A DNA stretch of 64,000 nucleotides, taken from positions 1 through 64,000 of IMG/VR virus record IMGVR_UViG_3300043313_002348; one strand, given 5' to 3'. This document shows positions 10,738 to 46,579 of this stretch, one piece after another. Made by a program: the position numbers and the translations under genes. This stretch comes from a virus. The notes beneath the pieces are model-generated. The model worked only from the letters and a program-made list of their open reading frames with translations. It was not told the DNA's origin and did no database searches. Each line of letters begins with the position of its first letter. Positions within the stretch are counted from its first letter, which is position 1.

Positions 10738-10755
10738 CTCTCTCCCTCCACCTCA

Positions 10756-11448
10756 TTACATGTCCTGATACGTACTAGGCGCGAGTCCTTTGAGTTGTCG
10801 TAAGATCTCCTGCGCGAGTAGTCGGATCTCGGCGTCCGCCGACGGGGTGTTACGTTTGGTGATGAACTCACGCCAGGCGCGGTGGTTGCCCGTGACGACG
10901 ATTCTCGTCTCCGTCATGTTCGGCAGGACGCAGCGCGCGGCCTCGCGCGCCTGCTTCCGACTCACGTCGTAGTTCGTGACGATGTGTTCCACGAGCTGGC
11001 GGTAGCGGCTTAACGCGAACTCAGCTACCTCACCCGGGATCTCCGCGTCGTCGATGTTGTTAGGTTCACCCGTGGAACGCATGAGAGGTGGGATGACCAT
11101 CTCGGCCGCGCCCTCGTTCACAAACCTCTGGGAGAGCTGTGAGAACGATAAGTGCCTGTGACGAACCAGCTCGTGGGTGAGCGAGCGGGACACACCCGTG
11201 ACGTAGAACGTCGCGGACGCGTGTTCAAGTACGGAGAAGTGTTCCGAGTCGATGATGTGCCGCAGGTAGTCTTGGTTAGCCGCGGTGGCTGAGTTCGGCT
11301 TGCTCCACGACTGGTAGCACGCCCGGCCGGCGAACTCGGCCAACTGATCCGGCTCCTCGTCATCAGCCGAGTGATGCCACACGTGATCTGTCGCGTTCTC
11401 AGCGGCAAACGAGTAAAACTTGGTCTCCGCGACCAATCTTACCTTCAC
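10756..11448 (-). CDS. thyX: Flavin-dependent thymidylate synthase
   Basis: HFSVLEH, RHRHLSFSQLSQR signature, AREAAR.VLP and N.RAW. Confidence 0.95.
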   Translation of the reverse strand: MKVRLVAETKFYSFAAENATDHVWHHSADDEEPDQLAEFAGRACYQSWSKPNSATAANQDYLRHIIDSEHFSVLEHASATFYVTGVSRSLTHELVRHRHLSFSQLSQRFVNEGAAEMVIPPLMRSTGEPNNIDDAEIPGEVAEFALSRYRQLVEHIVTNYDVSRKQAREAARCVLPNMTETRIVVTGNHRAWREFITKRNTPSADAEIRLLAQEILRQLKGLAPSTYQDM

Positions 11449-11592
11449 TTGCGTTTCTCCGTTCCTCCACCTACGGTTTCCTAAGATCTAGCGTAACATC
11501 TTCCGCCGTCTTCCTCATCTCTTCCTAGTGAGGACAGCGCGTGGGCGCCTCGTTTCCCACGCGCTGCCTCAGCTCCCGTGGGCAACGTTCCC

Positions 11593-12117: not shown

Positions 12118-12124
12118 AGCACTC

Positions 12125-12721: not shown

Positions 12722-12763
12722 TCTACCAGGGTACGCTGACGTGCGTGCGCGAAGGCTCGGTTA

Positions 12764-13261
12764 TCACGTCGCTAAAAGCTCAAGTACGTCGTCCTCGGGA
12801 AGACGAAAGACGTCGGCGAGCTCCGGCGTGAACATCTCGAGGTCGTGGTTCGGGTACGCGGGATCGAACGACGTGGCGTCCCAGATACCGAGGCGCGTCG
12901 CGTCCCAGTACCACGGCGCGAACACGTAGGGTTCGACCGGTGCGGGGTCGCCGCGATACGCCGAGTCTTGGAACTTCGAGTGAGTGTAGAGGATCTGAAA
13001 CCCGCGGTCCGATACCCACTCACGCAGGGCGTACGCGGCTACCTCACCGTGGTACACGTCGCTCACCGGTCGGTAGGCGTCGTGAAGCAGCGCGATCACC
13101 ACGAGTTCCGCGGACGCACCCTCGTCCTGCGCCCGCGTCGCGGTCTGCACGTTGTGATCACGTTGGTTCACCCGCGCCTTGGCAGGATCGAAATCGCGAA
13201 GTTCACGACAACGTTCGAGTAGGTGAAGCGCGGTCTTGAGCTCGTGAAGCTGGCGCGACAC
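12764..13261 (-). CDS. HD-domain protein (PhnZ-like subfamily)
   Basis: DHNVQTATRA...ALLHD...HGEVAA...TH motifs. Confidence 0.7.
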   Translation of the reverse strand: MSRQLHELKTALHLLERCRELRDFDPAKARVNQRDHNVQTATRAQDEGASAELVVIALLHDAYRPVSDVYHGEVAAYALREWVSDRGFQILYTHSKFQDSAYRGDPAPVEPYVFAPWYWDATRLGIWDATSFDPAYPNHDLEMFTPELADVFRLPEDDVLELLAT

Positions 13262-13450
13262 TAGGAGGCCTCCGCTCGCGTGACCGCCGCGCAGTCCTCA
13301 CACTGCAGGTGTCGATCACCGTAGAAGCAGTACACGACCTCGAGTACGTCACATTCGTCGTCGCAGCGGTCGCAACGTGCGGTGATCCGGACTACCTCCG
13401 GCGCGGTGAGCACCTAGTCAGAGTAGCGCGTCGGGGGTAGCGGTTGCCAG

Positions 13451-27492: not shown

Positions 27493-28503
27493 GTGCTGAT
27501 CATTCTCGAGGGTCCCGACCGCTCGGGTAAGTCGACCGTCGCGCGCGCGCTCGCCGACCGACTTAAGAAATTTGATCCTAACTGCTCGGTGGACATGCTT
27601 CACCGCGGACCTCCACGCCGACACCCACTCGCAGAGTATGAGCAGGATATCCAGGACTACCGGCCGCAACTGTGGCCCGGGCAGCTCGGAGATCTCCCCC
27701 GACGACACGTGATCTGCGACCGGTGGCACCTCGGTGAGGTCGTCTACCCACCCGTTCGGGGTCGTGGGTCGCTTCTTACTCACGAGGCGTTGTGGCACAT
27801 CGAGCTGTTCCTGCAGGCGCGCGGCGCGCTCGTCGTCACGTTCGACGTCCCAACGGACGTGCTCGTTCGGCGGACCGAAAAGGAGACCGGACAGCCCGTG
27901 GGTGACGCCGAGAGGCGTGTGATCGACCGGGTACGCGCCCGGTTCTTTACAGCTACCGTAAACTCGCGCGTCACCACACTTCGGTTCGCTCCTAGTGATC
28001 TCGTCGACACGTCCTTCGTCGTGGACCGCGTCGTCCAGCTCGCCTCGACCGTCGAGGCCTACTCCGCACCGGTTCGCGACTTCGTCACGTACGTTGGGCA
28101 CCCAAGTCCCAGTATCCTCGTCCTCGGAGACGTCCGCAAGCGCGCGAACGACGACCCAGGAGGTCCCGCGTTCGTGCCGTACGGTGGCACGTCGGGCGCG
28201 TACCTCCTGCGTGCGCTCGGCGAGGCGACCCGCGACCAGCGCGTAGGCCGTCTGGGACTCGCGAACGCCTGCGACGTCGACGACCCACTCGACCTGTGGG
28301 AGATGTTAGGTAGGCCGTGGCGCGTCACACTTCTCGGCCGAAACGCCGCACTCGCGGTCGAGAGAAAGTTCCGGGACTTAGGTGTGTCGGTCGGCGTCGT
28401 CGACCACCCGCAGTACGTGCGTCGGTTCCATCACGACCGTGTGAACGAGTACGGGCACGCGATTCTCTCAAGCCGATCTTCGTCGTTCGCGGGAGTGCAG
28501 TGA
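27493..28503 (+). CDS. dNMP/thymidylate kinase-like domain fused to uracil-DNA-glycosylase-like domain
   Basis: IILEGPDRSGKST and CDRWHLGE.VY; C-terminal ILVLGD...PAF...NA...TLLGR.A...HPQY. Confidence 0.75.
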   Translation: MLIILEGPDRSGKSTVARALADRLKKFDPNCSVDMLHRGPPRRHPLAEYEQDIQDYRPQLWPGQLGDLPRRHVICDRWHLGEVVYPPVRGRGSLLTHEALWHIELFLQARGALVVTFDVPTDVLVRRTEKETGQPVGDAERRVIDRVRARFFTATVNSRVTTLRFAPSDLVDTSFVVDRVVQLASTVEAYSAPVRDFVTYVGHPSPSILVLGDVRKRANDDPGGPAFVPYGGTSGAYLLRALGEATRDQRVGRLGLANACDVDDPLDLWEMLGRPWRVTLLGRNAALAVERKFRDLGVSVGVVDHPQYVRRFHHDRVNEYGHAILSSRSSSFAGVQ

Positions 28504-29435
28504 TGTCGTTTCTGAACATGTCGGTCACACTCGACGACAACCGCCGCGGTTACCGTAAGCTTGTGAAGATGCTTCTCCGCGACGGGGACGAGGTCGAGGT
28601 CCGCGGGTTGAAGACCCGTGAACTTCTCGGACTAACCGTCTTCTTTCCCAACCCAAGAGGACCACTTCTACCGATCGGCGTCGGGCGCAAGGTGAACACC
28701 GCGCTCGCCGCGGTCGAGACCCTGAGCATGCTCGGCGGGGTGTCGCGACCCGATCTCGTGACGAAGGCAGCTCCGACGTACCGCGACGTTCTCGTGAATC
28801 CCGACGACCTCGACTACGGGGCTTACGGTCTCCGTGTCGAGACCCAGTTCGTGGAGGTGGCGCGCCAGTTGGCGACCACCCGGGATCCGATGAGTCGCCG
28901 CGCCGTGATGACGATCTGGCGTCCCGAAGATCTCACGCACGACGGCGACCGACCGTGCACACTGTCAGTGCAGTTCATTCGAAGATCAAACCGGTTCGAC
29001 GCGCGAAGTCCCGACGAGCTTCACATGATCGTGACGATGCGGTCGCAGGACGTGTGGTTCGGCGCGGCGTACGACATGTTCCTCTTCGGTCAACTTCGCG
29101 ACACCCTCGCCCGGATCGTCGACTGCACGCCCGGTTGGTACGCGCACCAGGTCGGCTCGTTTCACCTCTACGAGCGTGACTACGAGAAGGCCGAGAAGCT
29201 CGTGAGCGCGGGCAATCACGAGTTCATTAGACATCATGGACAGCTACCGCGAGGAATCACAATCGGTGATCTACCCCGTGAACACCTCAGCCCGGTCGGC
29301 GCGCAGCGCGTCGCACGCGCGCTGCTCGGCGAGACGCACAAGACGTGGGTGACGCGCGCGTTAGCGGCAAGTCGAAACCCGTGGTACCAGCAGGCACTCG
29401 CGAAGATCTTACCCGTCGAGGTAGGTATCGCGTGA
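28503..29435 (+). CDS. Thymidylate-synthase-family enzyme, probably dCMP-modifying (hydroxymethylase-like)
   Basis: SRRA, RPCT, MRSQDVWFGAAYD and SFHLY; ATG at 28503 overlaps the upstream stop. Confidence 0.85.
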   Translation: MSFLNMSVTLDDNRRGYRKLVKMLLRDGDEVEVRGLKTRELLGLTVFFPNPRGPLLPIGVGRKVNTALAAVETLSMLGGVSRPDLVTKAAPTYRDVLVNPDDLDYGAYGLRVETQFVEVARQLATTRDPMSRRAVMTIWRPEDLTHDGDRPCTLSVQFIRRSNRFDARSPDELHMIVTMRSQDVWFGAAYDMFLFGQLRDTLARIVDCTPGWYAHQVGSFHLYERDYEKAEKLVSAGNHEFIRHHGQLPRGITIGDLPREHLSPVGAQRVARALLGETHKTWVTRALAASRNPWYQQALAKILPVEVGIA

Positions 29436-29893
29436 CCGTCGCGCACCGGCCGTCGATGGAGGCCGTGCTGCTCGCCTGCGCGTACGCGATGTCCCGCCGG
29501 TCCACGTGTCCTAACCTGCAGGTCGGCGTCGTGATCGCGCTTGACCTCCGGATCATGAGCACGGGCTACAACGGCGCGCCTCGAGGCCTCCAGCACTGCA
29601 CGCACCCGTCGCGCGTCGACGTACCGGACCAACCTCCCTGCGTGACTACCGTGCACGCGGAGGCGAACGCGGTGGCGTTCGCGGCGCGCGAGGGTATCAA
29701 CCTCGGAGGTGCGACGGTCTTCGGAACCCACTCACCCTGCCGTACCTGCGCGCAGCTTCTCGTCGGCACCGGGGTGGTCCGCTACGTCGCACTTGACCGC
29801 TATCACGACGGCAGTGGGATAGACGTACTCGAGGCAGCTAAAATCGAGTTTGAGGTACGACGTACGCCGGTCGCGGATCTTCTAGGAATGTAG
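29432..29893 (+). CDS. dCMP deaminase
   Basis: RSTC, TGYNGAP, HAEANA and PCRTC. Confidence 0.92.
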   Translation: MTVAHRPSMEAVLLACAYAMSRRSTCPNLQVGVVIALDLRIMSTGYNGAPRGLQHCTHPSRVDVPDQPPCVTTVHAEANAVAFAAREGINLGGATVFGTHSPCRTCAQLLVGTGVVRYVALDRYHDGSGIDVLEAAKIEFEVRRTPVADLLGM

Positions 29894-35306: not shown

Positions 35307-35453
35307 CGAGTAGGAAAATTACATGCCTGAGCGTTACCGCCCAAGTTGGGAAACACACTCCTTCGAGAGTGACATGTACGGTATGGCCATCGGCGTCGTG
35401 GTCCTCCTTCTCGCCCTAGCTGTGATCGTCTTCATCTTCTAAGAGGTGATGTA

Positions 35454-37154
35454 GTGCTTCCCGCAGGTCCGAACCAACTCACCGGCGCGTACGTCGCCGC
35501 GTTCCGTGAGCATCACAAGATCTCACGTGACACGTGGGCCGAGAAGGTAGGCATCACCGGTGGTCCGCAGTGGCGGATCGAGAAGAAGAACACCTTCAAG
35601 GAGTCCGAGCGCGCCGTGACGTGGAGCGCCGTGGAGGCACTCGGCGGTCCGATCGAACTTGACGTGATCGGTGAGGTAGCGCCGACGAACTTCCGCGGCG
35701 GCGACGGCGCCACCGGTAGCGGTGAAAAGAAGAAGTCAACCCGGCGAAGTAGCCTACCGCAGGTCGACCTCACCACTCCCGTGGTCTGTATCTCACCCGA
35801 GTTCGTCCCTCCCGCGTTCACCAACGACCACGGTGCGCCGACCGACCCGGCCGACGAGGAGGAAGTCTCGCCGTCCTTCGTCGTCACGACGGAGACACTG
35901 CCGATCGCGGAACCCGCGAACGTCATACCACTCCCCGCCGGCTGGGAACACTTCTACCCACCTTCCGATCCCCGTCACTTACATAGGTTTCTCCGCAACG
36001 AGAACCGATGTCTGAACGCGACCTGCGCGGCGACCGCGACCGGGTTTGACTCGGTAGCGGATCCGGACGAGATCACTCCCGAGAAGATCAAGGAACTTAT
36101 CCGGGTCGCCTCGGAAGTCGACACACCCTACGAGGGTCAAGTTCTCCCGGTGAAGGTCAGCGGTGACGTTCGCGCGCTGAGTAACTCCGAGATGGAGGAC
36201 GCACGCAGGTGTCGCCGGCGGTGGTGGTTGAGCTGGTACCTCGGCCTGCGTGAGAAGAACGAAGATAAGTTCGGTCACATGGCCATCGGCGACCGGGTTC
36301 ACCGCGCTCTCGCCGGCTGGTACGTGCCCGAGGGTCAGACACGCGTCGACCCGCGTGACGGTCTGGAACGTGCCATCGTCGAGGACTGGACCGTCGTCAA
36401 CGCGTGGGCGAACGACGCGGGTATGGACGCCGAGTACCTCGCGGGACTCGCCACACGCTACATGAAGGTGAACTCACTCGAGCGTGCCATGGTCGAAGGT
36501 TACGTGGAGTGGATCGCGGAGACCGGCGCCGACTCTCAGCTCGTGATTACCGGGTCGGAGGTCGCGCTGGCCGCGCCGGTTCAAGTTCAGGTGAACGGTG
36601 AACCGGTACCGGTCGAGATCATCGGTAAGCTCGACGCGCGCTACCACCGACTTAGCGACGGTCGCCGCGGGTTCATGGATCACAAGACCGTCGGGAGTCT
36701 CAAGGAGCCACTGCTCACGCTCGTAGGTAACAACCAGATGTACCAGTACATCCTACTCGAGTTTTTGAACACTCCGGACGGCGAGCTCGCCTGCGACACC
36801 GCTCTCTACAACATGCTTAGGCGTGTGAAGCGGACGGCGACGGCGAACCCACCCTTCTACGACCGGGTCGAGGTTCGTCACACCGTTCCTGAGCTTGAGT
36901 TCTACAAGACGGAGGTCGAGCAGGTCGCGACCGAGATCGTCGAGATGACCCGCAAGCTCGACGCCGGCGCCGACCCACTCAAGATCGCGTACCGCACGTG
37001 GCGTACCACGTGCAAGGACGACTGTCCACACTTCATGATCTGCCCGCTGTTCAACGACCGAGGTTCACGTGCCAACGACGCCCTCGCGGAGCGGTACGTG
37101 CAGACCGATCCGCTTAGGCGTTACGAAGGACTTGAGGTAGTTCGCCCGACGTAG
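35454..37154 (+). CDS. PD-(D/E)XK (Cas4/RecB-like) exonuclease with N-terminal extension
   Basis: SNSE...RCRRRW, GDRVH, GKLD...DHKT, Q..QY and C-terminal Cys cluster. Confidence 0.8.
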   Translation: MLPAGPNQLTGAYVAAFREHHKISRDTWAEKVGITGGPQWRIEKKNTFKESERAVTWSAVEALGGPIELDVIGEVAPTNFRGGDGATGSGEKKKSTRRSSLPQVDLTTPVVCISPEFVPPAFTNDHGAPTDPADEEEVSPSFVVTTETLPIAEPANVIPLPAGWEHFYPPSDPRHLHRFLRNENRCLNATCAATATGFDSVADPDEITPEKIKELIRVASEVDTPYEGQVLPVKVSGDVRALSNSEMEDARRCRRRWWLSWYLGLREKNEDKFGHMAIGDRVHRALAGWYVPEGQTRVDPRDGLERAIVEDWTVVNAWANDAGMDAEYLAGLATRYMKVNSLERAMVEGYVEWIAETGADSQLVITGSEVALAAPVQVQVNGEPVPVEIIGKLDARYHRLSDGRRGFMDHKTVGSLKEPLLTLVGNNQMYQYILLEFLNTPDGELACDTALYNMLRRVKRTATANPPFYDRVEVRHTVPELEFYKTEVEQVATEIVEMTRKLDAGADPLKIAYRTWRTTCKDDCPHFMICPLFNDRGSRANDALAERYVQTDPLRRYEGLEVVRPT

Positions 37155-37236
37155 CTCACGACATTCGCGTAGGTTCGCGTCGGTGATCTAGTAAGATGTA
37201 ACTGAAGTTGCCGAGAAAAGTGGAAGTGAGGAACCT

Positions 37237-38019
37237 GTGACAGCAGGTACCGCGCAGCTACCACCTCAACCTACGTTCGGGGTGGACCAACGTCTCTCGG
37301 TGCTCGTTCACGCGGGGGCGAAGGTGGGAAAGTCGACGTTCTCGGCGACCGCACCTGGACCTATGCTCGTGCTCGACGCCGAGGGATCGTGGCGGTTTAT
37401 CCCGCTTCGAAAGTTCTACTGGGATCCCATGAGTGGTCCGCCGCCGCAAGACGACAGTACGTGGGACGTGTGCGTGGTGACGGTCCGCACCTGGGAGGTG
37501 GTGCAGCGGACGTACGTGTGGTTGACGCAGTACATCACGCCGTTCGTCAGTGTGATCATTGACTCGATCACCGAGATTCAGCGCCGGTGCCGCGAGAACC
37601 TGGTCGGCACAGACGCGATGAAGATGCAAGACTGGGGCGTGCTGCTCGCGCGCATGGACAACGTGATTCGCGGGTTCCGCGACCTGACCCTCTACCCGCA
37701 ACTTAACATCCGCTGCGTGGTGTTTGTCGCCGAGACCCGCATGATCGACGGCAAGTATAAGCCGTCTATGCAGGGTCAGATCGGCGTCAGTCTTCCGTAC
37801 TGGGTGGACATCTGCGGCTACCTCATGCCCTTCCAACTCCCGGACGGCAACGGTCAGTCGACGGTCGAGGCGCGTCAACTGATCATTGTGCCGAACCCGA
37901 TGTACGAGGCAGGTGAGCGCGTCCAGGGTAAACTCCCACCGGCGATCCTCGTCCCGCGACCTGATCCGCAGCGGGTAGGAACCACGATCACAGAAATGAT
38001 GACAGCACTCTACAGCTAA
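37237..38019 (+). CDS. AAA ATPase, Sak4-like recombinase
   Basis: GAKVGKST, LDAEG, IIDSITE and QDWG. Confidence 0.8.
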   Translation: MTAGTAQLPPQPTFGVDQRLSVLVHAGAKVGKSTFSATAPGPMLVLDAEGSWRFIPLRKFYWDPMSGPPPQDDSTWDVCVVTVRTWEVVQRTYVWLTQYITPFVSVIIDSITEIQRRCRENLVGTDAMKMQDWGVLLARMDNVIRGFRDLTLYPQLNIRCVVFVAETRMIDGKYKPSMQGQIGVSLPYWVDICGYLMPFQLPDGNGQSTVEARQLIIVPNPMYEAGERVQGKLPPAILVPRPDPQRVGTTITEMMTALYS

Positions 38020-38033
38020 AGGAGTTAGCCCAC

Positions 38034-38975
38034 ATGGGCGCAGTTGACTTCAGTACCCTGCTCCAGCAGGCGAAGACCGTTTCCTTCGACGCGCTACCGA
38101 AGGCCGACTACACGATCCAGATCGTGGAGTCGGAGGCCACCAGCACGCAGGGTGGCAAGGACATGATCAAGGTGAAGGGTGCGGTCGTCGGCGGGCCGTA
38201 CAACGGTAAGAAGGTCTTCAACAACTTCGTCCTCTCCCCGGAGTCGGACGCGGCGCTCGCGATCTTCTTCCGCCAGATGGGTGCCCTCGGTGTGGACGAG
38301 GGAACGATCCTCCAGTGCTCTGGCGACGGAGGCATGGCCCGCTTGGCCGCCCTCCTGCAGAACCGCACGGCCGTGTGGTCTCTCGACACCCGCGAGTGGG
38401 GTGGCACCACGCGCAACGAGGTCAAGGCGATCAAACCGCTGCCCGCGGGTTCGGGTGCGCCGCCGGTCGCGGGACTTCCAGCCCCCACACCCGCGGCTCC
38501 CACCGGGATTCCGGCGGCGCTTCCGGGACTCCCCGGAATGCCGCAAGCGTCGCCGACCCCGACCGGCTTCGCCTCACCCACGGGTCTTCCGGGTCTCCCA
38601 GGTACTCCCGCCGCTCCCACCGCGGCGAACGGCGCCGCGACACCGCCTCCCGCACTCCCGGGTATGCCGGCGCTCGCCGGGATCCCACCGCAGGCGACGC
38701 AGCCGGATCCCGCCGCGCCGCAGGTGATCGCACAGCCTCAACCCACTCAGGTGGTCGCACCTCAGGTGCCGGCGCAGCCGGTCACGCCACCCGCGCCGGC
38801 GGCGCTGGTGCCCATCGCGGTACCACCGGCGGGCTACGAGGCCTACGCCGCGCAGTGGCCAACCTTCACCCCGGAGCAGCAGCACCAGGTGTACCAGGCT
38901 GCCGGCGTCCCGGTACCGGCGTCGGAGGTTCCGGCGCCACCCGCCACACCCGCACCACCCCCACTCCCGTTCTAA
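38034..38975 (+). CDS. DUF669-like single-stranded DNA-binding protein with Pro/Ala-rich tail
   Basis: FDALP..DY...GPYNGKKVF...RNEVK; ends in LPF; follows the Sak4-like gene. Confidence 0.7.
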   Translation: MGAVDFSTLLQQAKTVSFDALPKADYTIQIVESEATSTQGGKDMIKVKGAVVGGPYNGKKVFNNFVLSPESDAALAIFFRQMGALGVDEGTILQCSGDGGMARLAALLQNRTAVWSLDTREWGGTTRNEVKAIKPLPAGSGAPPVAGLPAPTPAAPTGIPAALPGLPGMPQASPTPTGFASPTGLPGLPGTPAAPTAANGAATPPPALPGMPALAGIPPQATQPDPAAPQVIAQPQPTQVVAPQVPAQPVTPPAPAALVPIAVPPAGYEAYAAQWPTFTPEQQHQVYQAAGVPVPASEVPAPPATPAPPPLPF

Positions 38976-39061
38976 CGTCCCTCGTTCGTCGACTAGGTCG
39001 GGTGACGGAACCGTGACGCCGGGTGCCGTCACCTGATCACTTACTAAGATAAGGAGTTCAC

Positions 39062-40429
39062 GTGCGCGTCGGGTACGCTAAGCTCGGGCAGCGCATCGCG
39101 CTCGGTGCGGGAGACGACTGGTCCTCGATCGGCAGCGACCGCGACGAACCTACCGTCCTGCGGCAACTCGCGCAGCGCAACCCGCATCACGAGTTCGTAC
39201 TCGTAGGAATGAACACGGGACCTCCTCTCGCCGACCTCGGATTTCCCTCGAACATCGTGAATCCGTGGGAGGAAGGTCTCCGCGGCGAGGTACGTGATGG
39301 TCTCGCCGTGGTGAGGCGTCAACACATGAACGGCGCTAAGGGTCTCACGCCCACTGGCCGGAACGAGGTCATTAGGCTGTACGACAACCTCACGGCACAC
39401 CTCTTCAAGGGTCTCGACGCTCTTGTGATCTGGGCGGGAACGCACGGCACCTCGAACTCACCTATGCCGGGTATCGTGAAGAGTACGCGCGGACGCTGGA
39501 CCTATCCGCAAGATCAGTACGTCACGTACGGCGCGTACCTCCTGCGTGGCATAAGCGTCTGGCGTGAACCTGATCCCCTCGGCCGAGAGGAGATCTGGCT
39601 CTGCCCCGACGCGCGTAACATACTTAAACATCACGACGCGAAGTGGCCTCGTCGTCACCCCGTCCTCGGCCAGTTTAACCTCCGCTACCGCTCGGTGTGC
39701 TGCCGTTACGGGGACGAACGTGAACCCGAGGCCTGTGGCTTCCCAGACGCGCGGTGGCACTCCGGACGTGATTACTGGGTCGCTACTGACACGTATGTCG
39801 GCTCGACGTTGGAGATCTGCGGGGTACACCCGGGAAGTTTTGAGGGTGGCTACGCGTGGCATGACCGCTGCCGGTTCGGCATGTTCGTCAACGAAGCCGG
39901 GACGAACGTGCCGGATTACCTGAGCCGCAAGGTGGCCCTGCGTGACTGGGTACTCCCACTCGGCTACGACTGGCTTCACGGAAACTGGACCACGCGATCA
40001 CTTACCGAACTGGGTGTGAGCATCGAACCCGCGCCTACCGCGGACTACTACCCCATCCTCTGCTCCGCGCGGTCGACGTTCACCACGCCGTCGTCCGGGT
40101 CGGGGTGGGCGACCGCGAAGCCGTGGGAGGCGTTCGGCGTCCGCACCGTCTGCTTCTTTCATCCCGAGTACGATACCCAGGGTCACATTATTCCGACACT
40201 CGCGCAGGTCGAGGCGGGTACAGTGGAAGACGTCGAGCTCGCGCACCTCGCGCGCTGGCTTCGGGTCAGCACGCCCGAGCAGCTACGCGAGCGGGTCGAC
40301 TGGGTCAACCGGGATGAAGGTGTGTGGTCCTGGCTCACTCAAGCACAGTACAATCTGTTCAGGCGTACGTACGACGCGCGGCCTTACCTGAGGAAGATCG
40401 AGGAGAGAATTAGTGGGAAAGCATCGTGA
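39062..40429 (+). CDS. DNA glycosyltransferase, T4 beta-glucosyltransferase-like (GT-B fold)
   Basis: C-terminus TAKPWEAF...HPEYDTQGHII...RVSTPEQLRERV...AQYNL parallels the T4 BGT C-terminal pattern as recalled (TLRVWE...EEFDTKHRII...ELIDRV...IQHDIL). Confidence 0.7.
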   Translation: MRVGYAKLGQRIALGAGDDWSSIGSDRDEPTVLRQLAQRNPHHEFVLVGMNTGPPLADLGFPSNIVNPWEEGLRGEVRDGLAVVRRQHMNGAKGLTPTGRNEVIRLYDNLTAHLFKGLDALVIWAGTHGTSNSPMPGIVKSTRGRWTYPQDQYVTYGAYLLRGISVWREPDPLGREEIWLCPDARNILKHHDAKWPRRHPVLGQFNLRYRSVCCRYGDEREPEACGFPDARWHSGRDYWVATDTYVGSTLEICGVHPGSFEGGYAWHDRCRFGMFVNEAGTNVPDYLSRKVALRDWVLPLGYDWLHGNWTTRSLTELGVSIEPAPTADYYPILCSARSTFTTPSSGSGWATAKPWEAFGVRTVCFFHPEYDTQGHIIPTLAQVEAGTVEDVELAHLARWLRVSTPEQLRERVDWVNRDEGVWSWLTQAQYNLFRRTYDARPYLRKIEERISGKAS

Positions 40430-41570
40430 TAGTTCGTTGAAGTTCGCGCTGATCACCACCACCGTTCACGTGCCGAAGAACCTTCACGCGTGGACAGCGT
40501 TCTTGCGTGACGGAGATCTGATCGTGGTTGCCGGGGACCTGAAGACACCTCACGAGGAGGTTATCGCACTCCTCGACGACGTCACGCGACCTCATCCGAA
40601 ACTCACGGCTCGCTACCTCAGTCCTACGCGTCAAGATACCATGTACCCGCTGCTGTCGGAACTCACCGGGTGGAACACGATCCAGCGGCGGAACTTCGCC
40701 ACACTCTACGCTCTTCAGCTAGGTGCTGACGTCATCATCACCGTGGATGACGACAACTGGCCTACCACTGACGCCCTCGACCACGCCGACGAGTTCCGCG
40801 CCCAGTTCACCGACGACGCCGTCGTACCACTCCTCGACGGCGGTGACTGGTACAACCCGTGTCACGTCTTACTCGTTCAAGGTCCGACCGAGCTCATTCA
40901 AGGTGCACCTCAGTTTAGGCGGCTCTGGCACCGCGGGTTCCCGCGCTGGCTACGTGAGTCGTACGTGCCGGTGGTCTACCCGATCACGCCAGATCCATAT
41001 CTGGAGACGGGACGTGTCGGCGTCGTCGCCTCACTCTGGCTCGGCGACCCGGACGTCGACGCGCTGGACCGACACCCGGTTGCACTCCGCGTCAACTACA
41101 ACTCGATTCCCGAAACCGACCGAAACGTCACGATCAACTCGCGAACCACGTGGGCCCCGTTCAACTCGCAGGCTACCGCGTTCCGCGCCGAGCTCGCACC
41201 TGCCCTACTCTACTGGCCACACGTGGGTCGGTACGACGACATCTGGGCGTCGTTCATCGCGCAGAAGATCATGTCGACCTACGACCTCCACGTGTCGTTC
41301 GGACACCCGGTCGTGGAGCAGCAGCGAGGTGAACACACCGAACGTGACTTCACCGCGTTCCTGAACGACCTCGAGAACGAGATCTTCGGCATGAGGCACA
41401 ACCGCGAGGTGGTCGAGGCGATCCGCACCTGGACCGCCGACCCGACGTTGAGCATTCTCGAGAACACCGAGCGGCTGTTCTACCACGTCGCCACGACGTG
41501 CGACTTCATACCTGACTCGACGGTCAAGATCTTCGACGAGTGGCTGCGAATCTTCAAGGCGCTGTCGTGA
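40413..41570 (+). CDS. RGP/STELLO (GT75)-like nucleotide-sugar mutase or glycosyltransferase
   Basis: AGDLKTP, RRNFA.LYA, TVDDDN, HRGFP, WLGDPDVDA, PFNSQ and GRYDDIWA. Confidence 0.75.
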   Translation: MGKHRDSSLKFALITTTVHVPKNLHAWTAFLRDGDLIVVAGDLKTPHEEVIALLDDVTRPHPKLTARYLSPTRQDTMYPLLSELTGWNTIQRRNFATLYALQLGADVIITVDDDNWPTTDALDHADEFRAQFTDDAVVPLLDGGDWYNPCHVLLVQGPTELIQGAPQFRRLWHRGFPRWLRESYVPVVYPITPDPYLETGRVGVVASLWLGDPDVDALDRHPVALRVNYNSIPETDRNVTINSRTTWAPFNSQATAFRAELAPALLYWPHVGRYDDIWASFIAQKIMSTYDLHVSFGHPVVEQQRGEHTERDFTAFLNDLENEIFGMRHNREVVEAIRTWTADPTLSILENTERLFYHVATTCDFIPDSTVKIFDEWLRIFKALS

Positions 41571-42484
41571 TGAGGGCCGTCGTCACAGGTGATCTCGGGT
41601 TCCTAGGTCGTCACTTCACACGTAAGTTGAAGGCGTGTGGTTTCGACGTCCTCGGCGTGGACGTCAAGCGTGGTGGCATGCGGACGAACGACTGCCGCTA
41701 CCTCTTCAACACGTCGACGGACCGGTACGACCTCGCGATCCACGCCGCCGCGGTGGTCGGAGGTCGTGAGGCCATCGAGGGGAGACCCCTCGACCTCACC
41801 GTGAACTTCGACCTCGACCTCGCGTATATGAGGTGGTTGTTAGCCACGCGTCCTCGCCACGCGGTGTACTTCTCGTCGTCGGCGGTCTACCCGATCACGC
41901 TGCAAGACACCGACCTCGTACCGCGACAACTCTGGGAACACGACCTTAACACGGTGAAGTACGTGGGTGTGCCGGACGAGATCTACGGGTGGACGAAGCT
42001 GGTCGGCGAGGAGCTCATGCGCCGCGTACGCGACGCCGGGGTCGACGTCACGGTGGTGCGACCGTTCAGCGGCTACGGCGCGGATCAAGATCTCACGTAC
42101 CCGTTTCCTACGTTCATCCGGCGCGGACTTGCCTGCGCCGCGGATCCGGAGTTACCCTTCGACGTATGGGGACCGGGAACTCAGGTACGCGACTTCGTTC
42201 ACGTCGACGACGTGGTAGCAGCGACCCTCAACGCCGTCGCACGTCCCGACGTGCAGGTGACCAACGTCTGCACCGGGATCGCCACGAGCTTCGTCGACCT
42301 CGCGCGCGAGGTTCTCAAGCAGGTGGCTCCCACACGGGAGCCAAACCGGATCGTAACCCACCCCGCTAAGCCTACCGGCGTCGCGTACCGCGTCGGCTCT
42401 CCGCGGCAGATGTTCAAGTTCTACGCACCGAAAGTATCACTACCCGAGGGAATCACGAGTGCGCTGGAGGTAAGTCGTGGTTGA
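41567..42484 (+). CDS. NAD-dependent nucleotide-sugar epimerase/dehydratase (extended SDR)
   Basis: VTGDLGFLG, FSSSAVY, YGWTK and RDFVHVDD. Confidence 0.9.
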   Translation: MMRAVVTGDLGFLGRHFTRKLKACGFDVLGVDVKRGGMRTNDCRYLFNTSTDRYDLAIHAAAVVGGREAIEGRPLDLTVNFDLDLAYMRWLLATRPRHAVYFSSSAVYPITLQDTDLVPRQLWEHDLNTVKYVGVPDEIYGWTKLVGEELMRRVRDAGVDVTVVRPFSGYGADQDLTYPFPTFIRRGLACAADPELPFDVWGPGTQVRDFVHVDDVVAATLNAVARPDVQVTNVCTGIATSFVDLAREVLKQVAPTREPNRIVTHPAKPTGVAYRVGSPRQMFKFYAPKVSLPEGITSALEVSRG

Positions 42485-42968
42485 GTTCGACGTCGTGGAC
42501 CTATCCGATTCCGGTTGGCAGTGGCTCAAGTCCACCGCGGACCTCCAGCGCGACACGTACGGGTACGACCTCCCGATGCCACCTGGCGAGAAGATCGCCA
42601 ACTACGCTGTGATGAATCACACCGCGGGTGTGAAGGAGTTCGGCGAGCTACTCGACGAGTTCGGGTGGAAGCCGTGGGCGTCACCACGAGGCTGGTTCAA
42701 CCGTGAGGCCGCACTGAGTGAGGCCGTCGACGTCGCGCACTTCCTCGCGAACATACTCGTGGCGATCGGCGTCACCGACGAGGAGTGGGAACTCGCGTAC
42801 CGAATGAAACAAGAGATGAACCGACGACGTCAGCGCGCTGGCTACACCGGCCGCGACAAGTGTCGCTCCTGCGGTCGCGCGTACGACGATCCCACCACAC
42901 GCTGCCGGCTCGACTCGGACTACTGCCAGGACGCGGCCACTCACGCGACGCGCAACACATTCGCCTAG
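42477..42968 (+). CDS. All-alpha dUTPase/dCTPase
   Basis: KEFGELLDEFGWKPW, EAVDVAHF and K.EMNRRRQ.AGY. Confidence 0.82.
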   Translation: MVEFDVVDLSDSGWQWLKSTADLQRDTYGYDLPMPPGEKIANYAVMNHTAGVKEFGELLDEFGWKPWASPRGWFNREAALSEAVDVAHFLANILVAIGVTDEEWELAYRMKQEMNRRRQRAGYTGRDKCRSCGRAYDDPTTRCRLDSDYCQDAATHATRNTFA

Positions 42969-43011
42969 TACGGTTAGATCGACGACGAAAGCGCCTACTT
43001 GGGGGTCATCA

Positions 43012-44223
43012 GTGAGTCTTACGGCGATCGACTGCCAGGGCTTCGCCGGCGGGTTCACCCTAGGAACCGTCAAGGCGGGCTTCGAGCTGGTCGGTAAGCG
43101 TGAACACACCGGTGGCTTCGGTGTGAAGAACTGCGAGGTGAACCGCGCTCTTCTCGGTGACAACTGGTACTCGCAAGCAGGTGAGGCATACACCTGGCAT
43201 CCTATGTCTGTGGACCTGGTGTTTGGCAACCCGCCGTGCTCCGGCTTCTCCGTGATGTCCAACAAGGACTTTCGCGGCATGAACTCAAAGATTAACTCGT
43301 GTATGTGGGACTTCTCCGGGTTCGCGGCGCGCTGCCGGCCACCTATCGCGATCTTCGAGTCTGTGCAGGCGGCGTACAAGCAGGGTCGTGATCTCATGGT
43401 CGCGCTGCGCGCCAACCTCGAGGAGCGGACCGGACTTCGCTACGACCTGTATCACGTGCTTCACAACGCGACGACGCTAGGTGGCCCGGCTGTGCGGCGT
43501 CGATACTTCTGGGTTGTCTCGGCGATCCCGTTCGGTGTGGAGTATCCCGAGCGTCGTCCCCCGATCCTGCGTGAGGTGATCGGCGACCTACTCGACACGC
43601 CACTCACGTGGACGAGTCAGCCGTACCGGAACCCCCCGACGTGGTGGTCCGAGCGCGTGCGTACGACTACGGGTACGGTCGACGGGCACACTTACGCCGA
43701 CGTTCCGTACGTCCGGCGCGCGCTCGATCTCCTCGAGCAACTGGGCGGTTGGCCCGAAGGATCACATATTGGCGCGGAGGCGAAGCGTGCGTGGGAACGT
43801 GACGGTAAGCTCCCACCGTCGTGGGATCACATCTGCGCTAAGTTGGTCGAAAATAAGTTTGAGATGGGATACACAACACTCACCCGCTGGCGTTGGAACA
43901 CGCCAGGTCGTGTGATCACGGGTGGTGCGATGCAGCTCGCGATGCACCCACTCGAGAACCGAACGTTTACCCACCGCGAGGTCGCCCGCATCATGGGGTT
44001 CCCGGACACCTGGCGGATCCTTCCACTTCGCGGGACTCCAGGTCTGGGTATGACGTGGGGTAAGGGCATCACGGTGACCTGCGGGGAGTGGATCGCGGGT
44101 CTCGCACGGCGCGCGCTAGCGGGACGACCGGCATCTTACCGTGGGAAGTTGATCGGGGATCGCGAGTACGAGGTGGACGAGATCTCCGCACGGCAGTTTG
44201 CTCGTAGTCACGTAGCCTGCTAG
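43012..44223 (+). CDS. DNA cytosine-C5 methyltransferase-like protein
   Basis: DCQGFAGG (variant motif I), GNPPCSGFS (IV), FESV (VI), RRRYF (VIII), RE.ARIMGFPD (IX) and GKGI (X). Confidence 0.82.
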   Translation: MSLTAIDCQGFAGGFTLGTVKAGFELVGKREHTGGFGVKNCEVNRALLGDNWYSQAGEAYTWHPMSVDLVFGNPPCSGFSVMSNKDFRGMNSKINSCMWDFSGFAARCRPPIAIFESVQAAYKQGRDLMVALRANLEERTGLRYDLYHVLHNATTLGGPAVRRRYFWVVSAIPFGVEYPERRPPILREVIGDLLDTPLTWTSQPYRNPPTWWSERVRTTTGTVDGHTYADVPYVRRALDLLEQLGGWPEGSHIGAEAKRAWERDGKLPPSWDHICAKLVENKFEMGYTTLTRWRWNTPGRVITGGAMQLAMHPLENRTFTHREVARIMGFPDTWRILPLRGTPGLGMTWGKGITVTCGEWIAGLARRALAGRPASYRGKLIGDREYEVDEISARQFARSHVAC

Positions 44224-44264
44224 AGTTGACGCTGTTACCACGAACACCGAGAGAAGGGAACCCG

Positions 44265-44618
44265 ATGAGCGAGACCACGATCGAGGCCACCGACGTGGCT
44301 ACCGACGAGACCAACGACGGCGCCGGACGAGGTCGACCGGGACGTCCGCGCTCCCAGGATACGCTGACCCGCGACGCGGTCGTGCAAAACGCGATCGCGC
44401 AGGGTGGGAAGACGAAGTCCGAGCTCGTCGCGGAGACGGGTCTCACCGCGAACGCCGTCTACCTGTCCCTGTTCCGGCTCAAGCGTGACCGCGTCATCGC
44501 GAAGACCTCCGTCGAGGGTCGCGGTCCGCACGTGTGGTACGCCGTCGGCTCGACGCCGGCACCGGCGCCGGAGCCGGCCAGCACGCAGGGCGTGGACGGT
44601 GACGTCGTCGACGAGTGA
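44265..44618 (+). CDS. Small DNA-binding protein (AT-hook-like GRP motifs plus winged HTH)
   Basis: GRGRPGRPR and KSELVAETGLTANAVYLSLFRL. Confidence 0.65.
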   Translation: MSETTIEATDVATDETNDGAGRGRPGRPRSQDTLTRDAVVQNAIAQGGKTKSELVAETGLTANAVYLSLFRLKRDRVIAKTSVEGRGPHVWYAVGSTPAPAPEPASTQGVDGDVVDE

Positions 44619-44638
44619 TCGTCAAGTTCACACCGACC

Positions 44639-44687
44639 GACGACCCGCGCGACGTCCCCCCCGTCCGCGCGGGTCGTCTCGTTTTTT
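44639..44687 (+). terminator. Intrinsic terminator ending the replication/modification operon
   Basis: GACGACCCGCGCG / CGCGCGGGTCGTC stem followed by TTTTTT. Confidence 0.8.
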
Positions 44688-44791
44688 CCTGAAAAATCTT
44701 GGGCAAACCTAGGCAAACCTGTAGCTCGATCACATTAATCCTGCTAGAGTAGACGTATCAGGAACGAACGAGAACGAGGAAGGGAACCACG

Positions 44792-46579
44792 ATGATAGCC
44801 ACCACGATCACGCACATAGCGGACATGAAGATCGACGTCAACGGCACCGAGCACGTCGTCGACCTGAAGATCACCGACATTCCGCGAGACGAGCGTCGCC
44901 AGACCGGTCGCGCGTACGTGTGGCTGAACGACAAGTTGAGCGCCCAGTTGGGCACTCCGCCTGACGACTTCACGTCAGCGGCGTGGCGTAGGTACCACCG
45001 CGCAATGATCAAGTTGATGAACGAGGTGCTGCAGGGCACGTGGAATCACGACGTTCCGCTGGTCGCGTCGTTCTCCCGCACAGCGGGTTGTTCCTGTGGC
45101 TGCTCTCCCGGGTTCCGCCTCCCGAACCAGCACGTCGACATCTACGTGAGTGTTAAGTAACCCACCAGGCCGTCGAGATCCTCTGAGAGGAGTAACCGTG
45201 CTGTACCAGGTGTTGGAACGCGCGCGTGAGGGTACCTCCTACTGGCACGTCTCTCTGGGCCTCGGTGGGATACCTGCCGAGCTTCACGACCAGACCGTCG
45301 TCACGATCCGGGAGGCGAACGGTAGGCTTGGGTGGACGAAGTACATGATCATTGGCGACAACCTCGGCTACGAGGCCTGCCTGCGGGCCGACGAAGACGA
45401 CAGGGCGAGAATGGGAGTGAGGAGGGTTCGGTAGTGAATCTCTTCAGGCTGTTCCATCACTGGCCTGAGCTGTTGTTTGTGATCACGGCAGGCTTCGTCG
45501 TCGGCTGCGTCATGTACTGGTTGAGTAGGTAAGAGTCAACGTCGAAGGAGGAAGCAGATGTCCACTACCCGTAAGCCCATGGGTGTGAAGGCTGCCGCCC
45601 GAATCCAGGCGCAGCGGCGGACGCGACACGCCGCGCGGCGCGCCGTCCGGACACTGGGTCGGTCGTTCACGCCGCGGGTGTCGCGACGTGGTCGCACCAC
45701 GATGATGTGATGTCTCCTTTACGGAGATCGCCTCGGTGTCGGTTCTGCGGGTCGCGAAGGCATAACCTTGAGACCTGCGAGTCGTACCGTGAGTACACCG
45801 AGCTCTTCAGTGGAACGGTGACGGCCGAGGAACTCGAGGCTCACGCCACTGACCGGTGGGAGTGGCCCGGACCTCACCGCCTACGGTGGGAGGGGATCAC
45901 GTGCATGTTTAGGGAGAGGGGAGAGTAGTGACCGCAGAGGTACCGACGATCGACTGGTCACAGCCGCTGACACGCGCGGACGCGCGGGGGTGGGTTGCCG
46001 CCGCTCTCGACTGGTCACATGAGAACGAACTCGCGTTCAACGTCCAGATCACACCTGAGCTTCGTCGCGAGATGCTGACGTACGCGCTCGACCGGGCGGA
46101 GGTGGTGCGCTTAGAGTGGGTTAAGATGCGTAGCACGCGACCGGCGGTCGACCGCCTCCGCGTACTTGGTACCGTCGGCTTACTTAAGTCCACGCTCGTC
46201 GAGATGATGATCACTACTCCGGAGGAGTGAAGATCGGGGGTGTCCACCCGCGTACGTGACTGGTCTCCGTGCGCGGGTGTAGACACCGAACCTGAGCTCC
46301 TGATATAATCACTACATCAGGAACGTAGGGGAGCGGACGAGCGGAGGAACGATGGTTAAGCAAGTTGACGAGGTTGACGGCGCGTTCGTGCATCCACTCG
46401 GGTTCATCTTTACGGTTGTGGGTGACGTCGCGCTGGTCACCGCGTGGGGTCACACCACGGCGTTAACCCGCGCCGAAGCCCGCGAGTGGTGGTCCGTCGC
46501 GAACGAGACCGCACGTTACTGGAAGTTAACGGGTGTTCAGGTGAACCTGACGTCCGCTGATCACATTGGGAGGTACTGA
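44792..46579 (+). CDS. Run of small hypothetical genes (44792-45160, ~45198-45434, 45707-45928, 45928-46230, 46352-46579)
   Basis: Co-oriented ORFs with RBSs downstream of the repeated promoters. Confidence 0.5.

Follow-up and report, generated by a model that had tools for sequence, protein, structure and literature searches.

Which sugar, if any, would a soil phage place on its DNA when it encodes a glycosyltransferase of T4-like fold directly beside a homologue of enzymes that contract sugar rings? The question is raised by the virus record IMGVR_UViG_3300043313_002348 (IMG/VR), of which positions 1 to 64,000 were analysed (hereafter the window), and within it by four overlapping genes at 39062-42968. 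An earlier note on this DNA had read these genes as a transferase like T4 DNA beta-glucosyltransferase (BGT), an RGP/STELLO-like protein, a short-chain dehydrogenase/reductase (SDR) epimerase and a dCTPase/dUTPase. We conclude, with a probability of roughly 60%, that the SDR and the second protein, a GT75 homologue, would make a nucleoside diphosphate (NDP)-hexofuranose, probably GDP-linked, and that the transferase would attach it to 5-hydroxymethylcytosine (5hmC, or hmC) in DNA. The basis in hand is gene identities, conserved catalytic residues and a comparative pattern. Those parts of the earlier reading that computation can address all held up, several of them in sharper form. All four plus-strand open reading frames (ORFs) were found where they had been placed (39062-40429, 40413-41570, 41540-42484 and 42477-42968), and are listed here with the later start of ORF3.

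39062..40429, + strand: ORF1, 455 aa; GT-B glycosyltransferase with a fold nearest to T4 DNA beta-glucosyltransferase; predicted DNA (5hmC) glycosyltransferase.
40413..41570, + strand: ORF2, 385 aa; GT75 (RGP/MtdL-type) divalent-cation NDP-pyranose mutase homologue, 'T-type', with Gln for the Mn-ligand His.
41570..42484, + strand: ORF3, 304 aa (314 aa from 41540); extended SDR, NDP-sugar epimerase/oxidoreductase 'type A'; predicted NAD-dependent C4 epimerase.
42477..42968, + strand: ORF4, 163 aa; all-alpha NTP pyrophosphatase, dUTPase_2, gp56-like; predicted dCTPase/dUTPase.

The cassette would provide the sugar side of a pathway for cytosine hypermodification in the manner of T4. Judged by family signatures, the gp42-like gene at 28503-29435 would make 5-hydroxymethyl-dCMP, the adjacent kinase would raise this nucleotide towards the triphosphate, and ORF4 would remove dCTP and dUTP, so that hmC is incorporated at replication. 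ORF1, judged by fold and context, would then glycosylate hmC in the DNA. For the donor, ORF3 would act with NAD to epimerise a host NDP-hexose at C4, giving a pyranose of galacto-like configuration, and ORF2 would contract that pyranose to the NDP-furanose used by ORF1, the nucleotide probably being GDP. The predicted product is a hexofuranosyl-hydroxymethylcytosine that would shield the DNA from nucleases. The T4-like parts list of the genome comprises a BGT-like fold, a gp42 signature, a gp56 relative, a dCMP deaminase, a kinase and the thymidylate synthase ThyX.

One transferase, interchangeable modules of probable donor supply

A scan of IMG/VR with an alignment of ORF1 gave 76 loci, many of them cut short, in which the window proteins were then searched by tblastn. 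Sak4 and DUF669 were each present in 69 of these loci and the exonuclease in 62. Counts for the other proteins are 59 for the C5 methyltransferase, 58 for dUTPase_2, 44 for GT75, 41 for the thymidylate-synthase (TS) homologue and 25 for an SDR. Among the 49 well-flanked loci the corresponding counts are 48 for the methyltransferase, 45 for dUTPase_2 and 29 for GT75. Where the upstream sequence extends for 9.5 kb or more (46 loci), the TS homologue is present in 40. The arrangement is far beyond chance; each ORF belongs to a sizeable family, and the layout recurs in 76 IMG/VR loci.

What lies beside ORF1 varies. GT75 is present in 44 loci, a nucleotidyltransferase-based module in 26, both in none, and neither in six, four of which end just after ORF1. 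The first type of nucleotidyltransferase module, a fusion of NTP_transferase and kinase domains of about 500 aa together with a SIS isomerase, occupies the same slot as GT75; other modules in that slot are an APH-like kinase with an NTP_transferase, or an NTP_transferase alone. The architecture of fusion plus SIS isomerase is that described for the UDP-arabinofuranose route of DNA arabinosylation (PMC13326640), and our likening of the first module type to this pathway is by Pfam domains and not by sequence match. Since GT75 and the nucleotidyltransferase modules are mutually exclusive beside the same transferase, the pattern argues that GT75 supplies the donor and not a second sugar.

Module type follows the clades of the transferase, yet switches several times, in a midpoint-rooted FastTree of ORF1 from the window and 72 of the 76 loci (L026, L050, L061 and L075, with ORF1 frames of 380 aa or less, were left out); from this tree we claim neither a donor nor an order of events. 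The window, with GT75 and a type A SDR, sits among isomerase-nucleotidyltransferase loci, next to a clade bearing GDP-mannose 3,5-epimerase (GME). The module of SIS isomerase and nucleotidyltransferase-kinase is carried by L007, L018, L019, L021, L025, L053 and L068. The TS homologue keeps Asp169, a residue discussed below, in L007 and L018 (the two aligned), and these relatives may attach arabinose to 5hmC, not to 5-hydroxycytosine as in RB69 and DLP3.

GT75 homology and catalytic residues of ORF2

In Pfam, ORF2 gave a sub-threshold STELLO match alone (17 bits against a cut-off of 27.8), and PF03214 (RGP) was missed. Its kinship is with MtdL. Together with Hyg20, MtdL belongs to the GT75 GDP-L-galactose and GDP-L-fucose pyranose mutases of the pathways to the antibiotics A201A and hygromycin A (PMC9937993). 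A phmmer search with ORF2 reached the MtdL crystal structures at E 3.4e-22 (residues 73-342), and a profile built from an alignment of 41 ORF2 homologues (A3) matched MtdL end to end (positions 3-342 of 346) at E 1e-57, far more strongly than it matched a UDP-arabinopyranose mutase structure (E 1.7e-8). There are 3410 homologues of ORF2, and among the matches listed PF03214 is found in most of 120. The GT75 assignment is thus firm on homology, and the earlier reading of an RGP/STELLO-like protein is confirmed.

Residues were compared with MtdL across the window and the GT75 of 40 related IMG/VR loci. The DxD motif of ORF2, D112-D113-D114-N115 (MtdL DDD109-111 and Asn112), is invariant in A3, and its first Asp is kept in 39 of the 40 loci. 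The sequence R174-G-F-P holds the nucleophilic, autoglycosylated Arg (MtdL Arg159), which is invariant in A3 and in 40 of 40 loci. ORF2 retains D214 (Asp195), S252 (Ser228), Q253 (Gln229), R273 (Arg257) and D276 (Asp260), as well as the diphosphate-binding Arg289 and His292 of MtdL (R305 and H308). Also kept are T16 (Thr13), D42 (Asp40) and R93 (Arg90), with Ile15 conservatively replaced by V18. Four MtdL positions are altered: Asn42 to Lys, Ser86 to Thr, Asp87 to Ile90 and His287 to Gln303. One related GT75 (L023, 7495-8478) has Asn for the first Asp of the DxD motif, Gly for Asn112 and Glu for Gln229, and may be an inactivated or retuned copy.

The Gln at the His287 position is invariant in A3 and is also found in a cellular SDR-GT75 fusion (L113, the one cellular homologue examined at this position). 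Because the cellular protein has the same Gln, this residue is, by comparison of sequences, a subfamily trait and not phage decay.

The altered residues could be taken to mean that the DNA is glycosylated from a pyranose donor, ORF2 being a degenerate or regulatory GT75 and ORF3 alone tailoring the host sugar. Both His287 and Asp87 are lost in ORF2, the L023 copy shows added decay at the DxD and Gln229 positions, and pairs of an epimerase and a glycosyltransferase suffice in the phage clusters tested in one study (10.1101/2023.12.21.572611). We nevertheless consider a pyranose donor quite unlikely: ten catalytic or substrate-binding positions are under strong purifying conservation across the 40 loci at overall identities of about 30-45%, and 15 loci have GT75 but no SDR, so that GT75 is no accessory of the SDR. 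The subfamily Gln of L113 counts against degeneration as well.

SDR-GT75 pairs in cellular genomes

When one genome per species was scanned with the GT75 alignment, 79 cellular loci were obtained, mostly in metagenome-assembled genomes (MAGs). A type A-like SDR ends just before GT75 in 13 of the 79 (133-162 bits, above the GME score), and in 11 there is a GME-like gene (216-302 bits) no more than 5 kb from GT75. In a Saccharibacteria MAG the type A SDR is fused to GT75 in a single protein of 721 aa (L113:3954-6116), of which residues 6-338 match ORF3 at E 5e-40 and residues 350-657 match ORF2 at E 1e-42. Ten neighbouring genes were sampled across six SDR-GT75 loci; among them are a small GT2, seen in four of the loci, a flippase for polysaccharides (Polysacc_synt) and a PMT_2 protein. 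Runs of GT2, SDR and GT75 occur in several of the six, from Patescibacteria, Nitrospirota/Nitrospinota and Gammaproteobacteria MAGs. From its gene content, the cellular SDR-GT75 run looks like an uncharacterised NDP-furanose pathway, and the type A SDR with GT75 has the look of a conserved unit for donor supply, set by the phage next to a DNA transferase.

Among isolated-phage records GT75 was found in three cyanophages (four records) and in three metagenomic jumbo-phage records only. One of the cyanophage homologues, from Synechococcus phage S-T4 (L084; NC_048049, 77002-77910), shares 29.5% identity and is annotated as hypothetical.

The earlier note had allowed that the GT75-like protein might instead add a second sugar. 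ORF1 would then add the first sugar from a host donor epimerised by ORF3, and ORF2, acting as a GT-A transferase, would add the second or prime by self-glycosylation. GT75 enzymes do have a true GT-A fold with arginine autoglycosylation (PMC9937993), and the Mn-ligand His is replaced by Gln in ORF2. Successive and epimerase-dependent glycosyltransferases have been shown experimentally in phage DNA modules (10.1101/2023.12.21.572611), and T-even and RB69-type phages add second sugars (PMC13326640). Set against this, GT75 shares its slot with donor-making nucleotidyltransferase/kinase modules, which are not transferases, and the two co-occur in none of the 76 loci. The cellular pairs and the fusion stand beside separate GT2 and GT-C type genes, as would fit donor supply, and the residues proposed for ring opening and contraction are all invariant. 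Transfer to an external acceptor is not known to us for any GT75. Autoglycosylation and mutase activity are the only activities described for the family in the MtdL study (PMC9937993). We therefore regard a second transferase as unlikely. The note's first suggestion, that the phage builds its own NDP-sugar and plausibly a furanose, is favored by the same module exclusivity (44, 26 and 0 of 76) and by the cellular SDR-GT75 pairing and fusion.

GDP or UDP as the nucleotide

The SDRs of the related loci are of two kinds, type A in 17 loci and the window, and type B in eight. Type B SDRs are GMEs; the copy in L004, the one searched, matches plant GME at E 8.3e-87. In that locus ORF1 is at 10001-11305, GT75 at about 11341-12336 and GME at 12372-13388. 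GME makes GDP-L-galactose, the natural substrate of MtdL. In the GT75 of all 25 SDR-bearing loci and of the window, the residue at MtdL position 13 is Thr, and position 86 is non-acidic (Ser, Cys, Thr, Asn or Lys). Exchange of these MtdL residues for those of the plant UDP-type enzymes (T13P and S86D) weakens or abolishes GDP binding (PMC9937993).

A second GT75 subtype, in which position 13 is Pro and position 40 is Asn, is found in L034-L037, L042, L048, L049, L052, L054, L069 and L075. None of these 11 loci, whose Pro13 is as in the UDP-using plant RGPs, has an adjacent SDR. The correlation speaks for GDP-sugars as substrates of the Thr-type GT75, and the Pro-type GT75 may be a UDP-sugar mutase acting on a host donor such as UDP-galactose.

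Because of the base-selectivity residues and the GME partners in relatives, the nucleotide of the window cassette is probably GDP rather than UDP. The same two lines of evidence led us to down-weight a UDP-arabinose donor, and the earlier analogy with plant RGPs probably had the nucleotide wrong, as GDP-sugars are the substrates of MtdL and Hyg20. A more specific version of the proposal, in which hmC carries a GDP-derived hexofuranose that is L-galactofuranose in the GME-bearing relatives and a related furanose in the window, is offered tentatively.

The reaction of ORF3

ORF3 is an extended SDR (PF01370 Epimerase, E 4.9e-30), in accord with the epimerase named in the earlier note. Over its full length it matches, best among PDB entries, E. 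coli GDP-fucose synthetase (Fcl; E 7.4e-12) and GME (E 1.4e-8), and UDP-hexose and uronate 4-epimerases match its C-terminal half. Protein atlas matches are mostly viral clusters with generic names. A profile of 13 type A SDRs ties GME (E 2.4e-29), Fcl (3.6e-28) and the UDP-GlcA and UDP-Glc 4-epimerases (about 5e-28 to 1e-26).

ORF3 was aligned by MAFFT with E. coli Fcl and GalE (sequences from NC_000913). The Ser-Tyr-Lys triad is retained (Fcl Ser107, Tyr136 and Lys140). Cys109 and His179 of Fcl, which we take to be its epimerisation acid/base pair (E. coli numbering, the positions checked on the E. coli sequence), are not: Cys109 is Ala, and His179 aligns to Gln within a gapped region, with no true counterpart. 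With these replacements and a score of 64 bits against the NCBIfam Fcl model (cut-off 500), an Fcl function was rejected. GME was rejected also, as ORF3 and the other type A SDRs carry SSSA(V/A)YP and are without the SSAC Cys and the GGREKAPAA loop of GME, and the match of ORF3 to GME (E 1.4e-8) is far below that of the type B enzyme of L004.

SDR dehydratases generally carry an acidic residue after the catalytic Ser/Thr, and an Asp at the end of beta-2 is taken to indicate NAD and not NADP. ORF3 has no acidic residue after its catalytic Ser and has Asp at the end of beta-2. Because the 3,5-epimerase acid/base residues and the post-Ser acidic residue are missing and the beta-2 Asp is present, ORF3 is most simply a C4 epimerase, probable by elimination. 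No NTP_transferase domain, and no SDR besides ORF3, was found in the whole genome; the input must therefore be a host NDP-sugar.

ORF1 and the nature of its acceptor

No match to ORF1 was found in Pfam, PHROG, NCBIfam or PDB sequences. It has at least 539 homologues, all unnamed, on phage-sized metagenomic contigs. An AlphaFold2 model built on 46 homologues (mean predicted local distance difference test score, pLDDT, 89.6) has a two-Rossmann GT-B fold. Searched against the PDB with Foldseek, it gave T4 BGT at ranks 1-6 (E 5e-8 to 6.6e-7). VIA-align likewise placed T4 BGT first to fourth (Z 20.6-21.0), the best match having Z 21.0 and a root-mean-square deviation of 3.8 over 310 of 344 residues; BshA (Z 18.2), T4 alpha-glucosyltransferase (16.5) and the phage HY126 glycosyltransferase (15.8) scored lower. 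In BFVD, which holds predicted viral structures, the second match is annotated 'DNA beta-glucosyltransferase' (E 2.9e-16).

Family-level searches gave a different picture. The BGT N-terminal domain PF09198, whose family we take to be CAZy GT63, is matched by T4 BGT at 325 bits; it is not matched by ORF1, nor is it among the nine families listed for the 46 members scanned. Weak PF13524 matches occur in 12 of the 46 members and likewise in T4 BGT itself. An hhalign comparison of the ORF1 family with T4 BGT gave 24.9% probability and E 7.8e-4 over 70 columns, all within the C-terminal region that binds the nucleotide. ORF1 is thus BGT-like in its modelled fold, and membership of the BGT family is not demonstrated: the earlier BGT-like label stands by structure (Z 21.0 for T4 BGT against 18.2 for the next family) and not by sequence family.

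Against 50,697 phage records ORF1 gave no match at E 1e-5 in the standard search; when matches up to E 1 were considered, there was a weak one to Pseudoalteromonas phage vB_Psh_XG4 (E 4e-9, in an unannotated record) and another at E 0.3. No relatives were found as prophages in 185,579 species genomes (one per species), by a pattern-seeded scan that could miss distant relatives.

DNA as the target of ORF1 is predicted from fold and context. Might the cassette not act on DNA at all, with ORF1-3 glycosylating a virion protein or the host envelope in an auxiliary metabolic or receptor-masking role? ORF1 has no sequence-level family assignment, and GT-B enzymes for teichoic acid, bacillithiol and phosphatidylinositol mannoside (PIM) score Z 16-18 against it. 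The GT75 of cyanophage S-T4 lies in a surface-sugar-like island, and the cellular SDR-GT75 pairs adjoin polysaccharide flippase (Polysacc_synt) and PMT_2 genes. Soil-phage GT75 has also been called a carbon-cycle auxiliary metabolic gene, cited for cell-membrane components and carbon sequestration (PMC12016548). Yet the best solved match on both aligners is a DNA enzyme, T4 BGT, and across the 76 loci ORF1 keeps its position between the genes for the single-stranded DNA-binding protein (SSB) and Sak4 and those for the dCTPase-like protein and C5 methyltransferase. The cytosine-specific TS homologue accompanies it in 40 of 46 loci where the upstream sequence is long enough, and the module in sister loci resembles, by Pfam domains, the donor pathway of DNA arabinosylation. 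An envelope enzyme borrowed from hosts would also be expected to have relatives among the 185,579 species genomes, in which the pattern-seeded scan found none. We consider a role away from DNA improbable.

Predicted supply of the acceptor base

Five further genes bear on the acceptor.

28503..29435, + strand: thymidylate-synthase homologue, predicted dCMP hydroxymethylase (PF00303, E 6.3e-19).
27493..28503, + strand: P-loop kinase with a thymidylate-kinase-like N-terminus (PF02223, E 3.7e-6, residues 5-28 only).
29345..29893, + strand: dCMP deaminase (PF00383, E 9.6e-19).
10774..11358, - strand: ThyX flavin-dependent thymidylate synthase (PF02511, E 1.9e-56).
43012..44223, + strand: C5-cytosine DNA methyltransferase (PF00145, E 2.1e-17) with an intact PC motif, directly following the cassette.

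The best PDB match of the TS homologue is the CMP hydroxymethylase MilA (E 3.5e-13). In alignment with E. coli ThyA and T4 gp42, Cys146 and Asp169 are kept and Asn177 is Asp, as in gp42, and the 29 relatives whose motifs were parsed by pattern all keep Asp169 and have Asp at 177. The exchange D169N is reported as the mark of 5-hydroxy-dCMP synthases (PMC13326640). With Asp169 kept in the window and in all 29 parsed relatives, a 5-hydroxycytosine acceptor made by a synthase of the RB69 gp48 type was rejected. The gp42 signature bears out the earlier suggestion that a modified cytosine is made by 28503-29435, and the acceptor precursor is predicted to be 5-hydroxymethyl-dCMP (5hm-dCMP). ThyX supplies dTMP, and the ThyA-like gene is therefore free for cytosine modification.

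The TS homologue is flanked by the P-loop kinase, immediately 5', and by the dCMP deaminase, followed by a family A DNA polymerase. By locus-tag numbers, a nucleotide kinase also lies within a gene or two of the TS homologue in DLP3, RB69 and RL38J1 (PMC13326640), and the kinase at 27493-28503 is a candidate for phosphorylating the modified dNMP. A TET/JBP route to hmC was considered in view of the adjacent C5 methyltransferase and rejected, as no TET/JBP domain (PF12851) was found in the whole 82.9 kb genome.

ORF4 scores above the cut-off of PF08761 dUTPase_2 (34.1 bits against 22.9, E 4.2e-8) and matches the dUTPase family phrog_18650 at E 3.2e-23. BLASTP aligned it with T4 gp56, itself in PF08761, at 40% identity over 42 aa (E 3e-8), and there is a weak match to human DCTPP1 (dCTP pyrophosphatase 1; E 0.0049); the dCTPase/dUTPase of the earlier note is upheld as a prediction. 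The C-terminus of ORF4 (42870-42968) is a Cys-rich tail, with a CxxC and two more Cys, that is not in T4 gp56. The ORF4 homologue in L018 has a weak zinc-finger match.

Genome and cassette organization

The record of which the window covers the first 64 kb is 82,914 bp long, has direct terminal repeats and is rated 100% complete. The G+C content is about 62%, and the DNA represents an uncultured soil phage lineage. On the 5' side of the cassette are genes for a PD-(D/E)XK exonuclease, a Sak4-like annealing protein and a DUF669 SSB, and on the 3' side is the C5 methyltransferase. Lying between recombination genes and the methyltransferase, the four overlapping genes are fairly described as 'inside the replication operon', in the words of the earlier note.

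The overlaps are 17 nt between ORF1 and ORF2, 31 nt between ORF2 and ORF3 (1 nt with the later start) and 8 nt between ORF3 and ORF4. An in-frame ATG of ORF3 at 41570 overlaps the ORF2 stop as TGATG, and the protein atlas entry for ORF3 begins at residue 11, the Met at 41570; because of these two observations, that start is more likely than the one at 41540. The GTG start of ORF1 is preceded by a ribosome-binding site, AAGGAG, 7 nt upstream. Between the SSB gene and this site is an inverted repeat, GGTGACGG ... CCGTCACC (38998-39033), which may be a regulatory or processing hairpin.

Terminator-like sites were sought by consensus only, with three found in 10 kb against 5.2 expected; there were none between 38261 and 44669, and the first one 3' of the cassette is listed below. 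A simple promoter scan of 35000-45000 gave no match, from which no conclusion is drawn.

44669..44682, + strand: first terminator-like hairpin 3' of the cassette (consensus scan only).

Points against a furanose on hydroxymethylcytosine

Several observations weigh against the proposed pathway. The Mn2+-ligand His287 of MtdL is Gln303 in ORF2; Gln is found there in 37 of the 40 loci and Ser in three, and the MtdL study ties loss of the His287 equivalent, jointly with Arg257, to the inactive AtRGP5 (PMC9937993). Asp87, essential in MtdL, is Ile90 in ORF2, and is Ser in active plant enzymes. The exchanges at the metal ligand His287 and at Asp87 could signal that the chemistry of the mutase is changed or lost. 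The choice of GDP rests on two positions from one mutagenesis study, and a third, Asn42, is Lys in ORF2. The reaction of ORF3 is not assignable, as single-sequence, profile, NCBIfam and atlas searches leave GME, Fcl and the 4-epimerases tied.

For the transferase, no relation at sequence-family level ties ORF1 to the N-terminal domain of BGT, and BshA-type enzymes fall only about 3 Z units below T4 BGT in fold comparison. GT-B folds glycosylate many kinds of acceptor. For the base, a C5 methyltransferase in 48 of the 49 well-flanked loci is hard to square with full replacement of C by hmC, and may reflect partial replacement, action on host DNA or another role. The motif pattern did not parse 12 of the 41 TS-like matches, so the D169N form may be among them. 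Finally, the GT75 of phage S-T4 lies in an island of heptose-pathway, epimerase and glycosyltransferase genes and not in a DNA module, which shows that a phage GT75 need not go with one.

Significance

Sugars on phage DNA determine its exposure to cutting by the various restriction, CRISPR and type IV systems, and the enzymes involved are a source of tools for DNA labelling. Known donors of DNA sugars are UDP-glucose, UDP-arabinofuranose and epimerised UDP-hexoses, with UDP-galactofuranose from a flavin mutase as a further, proposed one. GT75 would open another path to furanose donors, unrelated to those in use elsewhere, and probably bring in GDP-sugars too, so that the chemistry of DNA modification would be wider than present gene markers capture. 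The 76 loci suggest a search rule for new DNA sugars, namely one conserved transferase with interchangeable donor modules, and single out two enzyme sets: GME, GT75 and the glycosyltransferase, and the type A SDR, GT75 and the glycosyltransferase. The GT75 subfamily with Gln for the metal-binding His is unstudied and is common to phage and cellular genomes. Soil-virome tallies that treat phage GT75 as a carbon-cycling gene (PMC12016548) may misjudge its role.

If hmC indeed carries a hexofuranose from a GDP donor, the base would be a new one, and the system would be the first to glycosylate DNA in a GDP-dependent way and the first in a virus to employ a metal-dependent GT75 mutase. Because the alternative partner module makes UDP-arabinofuranose, the ORF1 family would then be dedicated DNA furanosyltransferases. 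Many of the 'GT75 auxiliary metabolic genes' of soil viromes would be DNA-modification genes, and the type A SDR with a Gln-type GT75 would be an uncharacterised NDP-furanose pathway in Patescibacteria and other cells.

Comparison with known systems

The earlier remark that no characterised pathway has this combination agrees with our literature searches, and close precedents exist. In the literature searched, with subscription journals and supplements outside its coverage, we found no description of a GT75 or pyranose mutase in phage DNA modification. The near precedents are epimerase-dependent DNA glycosyltransferases, the UDP-arabinofuranose pathway and the FAD-type UDP-galactopyranose mutase of RL38J1.

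The hmC pathway of T4 (gp42, gp56, gp1 kinase, cd deaminase and BGT) has the same logic and the same kinds of parts as the window. T4 uses host UDP-glucose directly, whereas the window adds an SDR and a GT75 mutase homologue; ORF1 lies outside the BGT sequence family, and the window block includes a conserved C5 methyltransferase. In plants, an SDR 4-epimerase acts on UDP-xylose, and an RGP/UDP-arabinopyranose mutase (UAM) then acts on UDP-L-arabinopyranose. The window resembles this route in the GT75 family and in the logic of 4-epimerase followed by mutase. At the three base-selectivity positions, where ORF2 has Thr, Lys and Thr, the plant GT75 enzymes carry Pro, Asp and Asp (PMC9937993).

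Phages RB69, DLP3 and RL38J1 share with the window a TS homologue, a kinase, GT-B transferases and a phage-encoded supply of furanose donor, the donors being UDP-arabinofuranose from ribulose 5-phosphate in RB69 and DLP3 and, as proposed, UDP-galactofuranose by way of a phage mutase in RL38J1 (PMC13326640). Their TS homologues carry D169N and make 5-hydroxy-dCMP, whereas the window and its 29 parsed relatives keep Asp169 like gp42, and the RL38J1 mutase is of the FAD-dependent UDP-galactopyranose mutase (UGM) type, unrelated to GT75 (PMC13326640). In the 'subclass II' clusters (10.1101/2023.12.21.572611), as in the window, a DNA glycosyltransferase relies on a neighbouring sugar epimerase and a C5 methyltransferase is nearby; those clusters make hmC after replication, with a methyltransferase and a TET-like dioxygenase, whereas the window genome has no TET. 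The same work reports GT-B types associated with thymidylate-synthase homologues, and its main text makes no mention of a mutase, furanose or GDP (10.1101/2023.12.21.572611).

MtdL differs from ORF2 at His287 (Gln), Asp87 (Ile) and Asn42 (Lys); the window SDR is no GME, and the predicted acceptor is DNA and not a nucleoside antibiotic. The two proteins are homologous over their full length and share the catalytic set, with the GDP-type Thr13 kept and Ser86 replaced by Thr. Their pathways are alike as well, in that relatives of the window pair GT75 with GME, whose product, GDP-L-galactose, is the substrate of MtdL.

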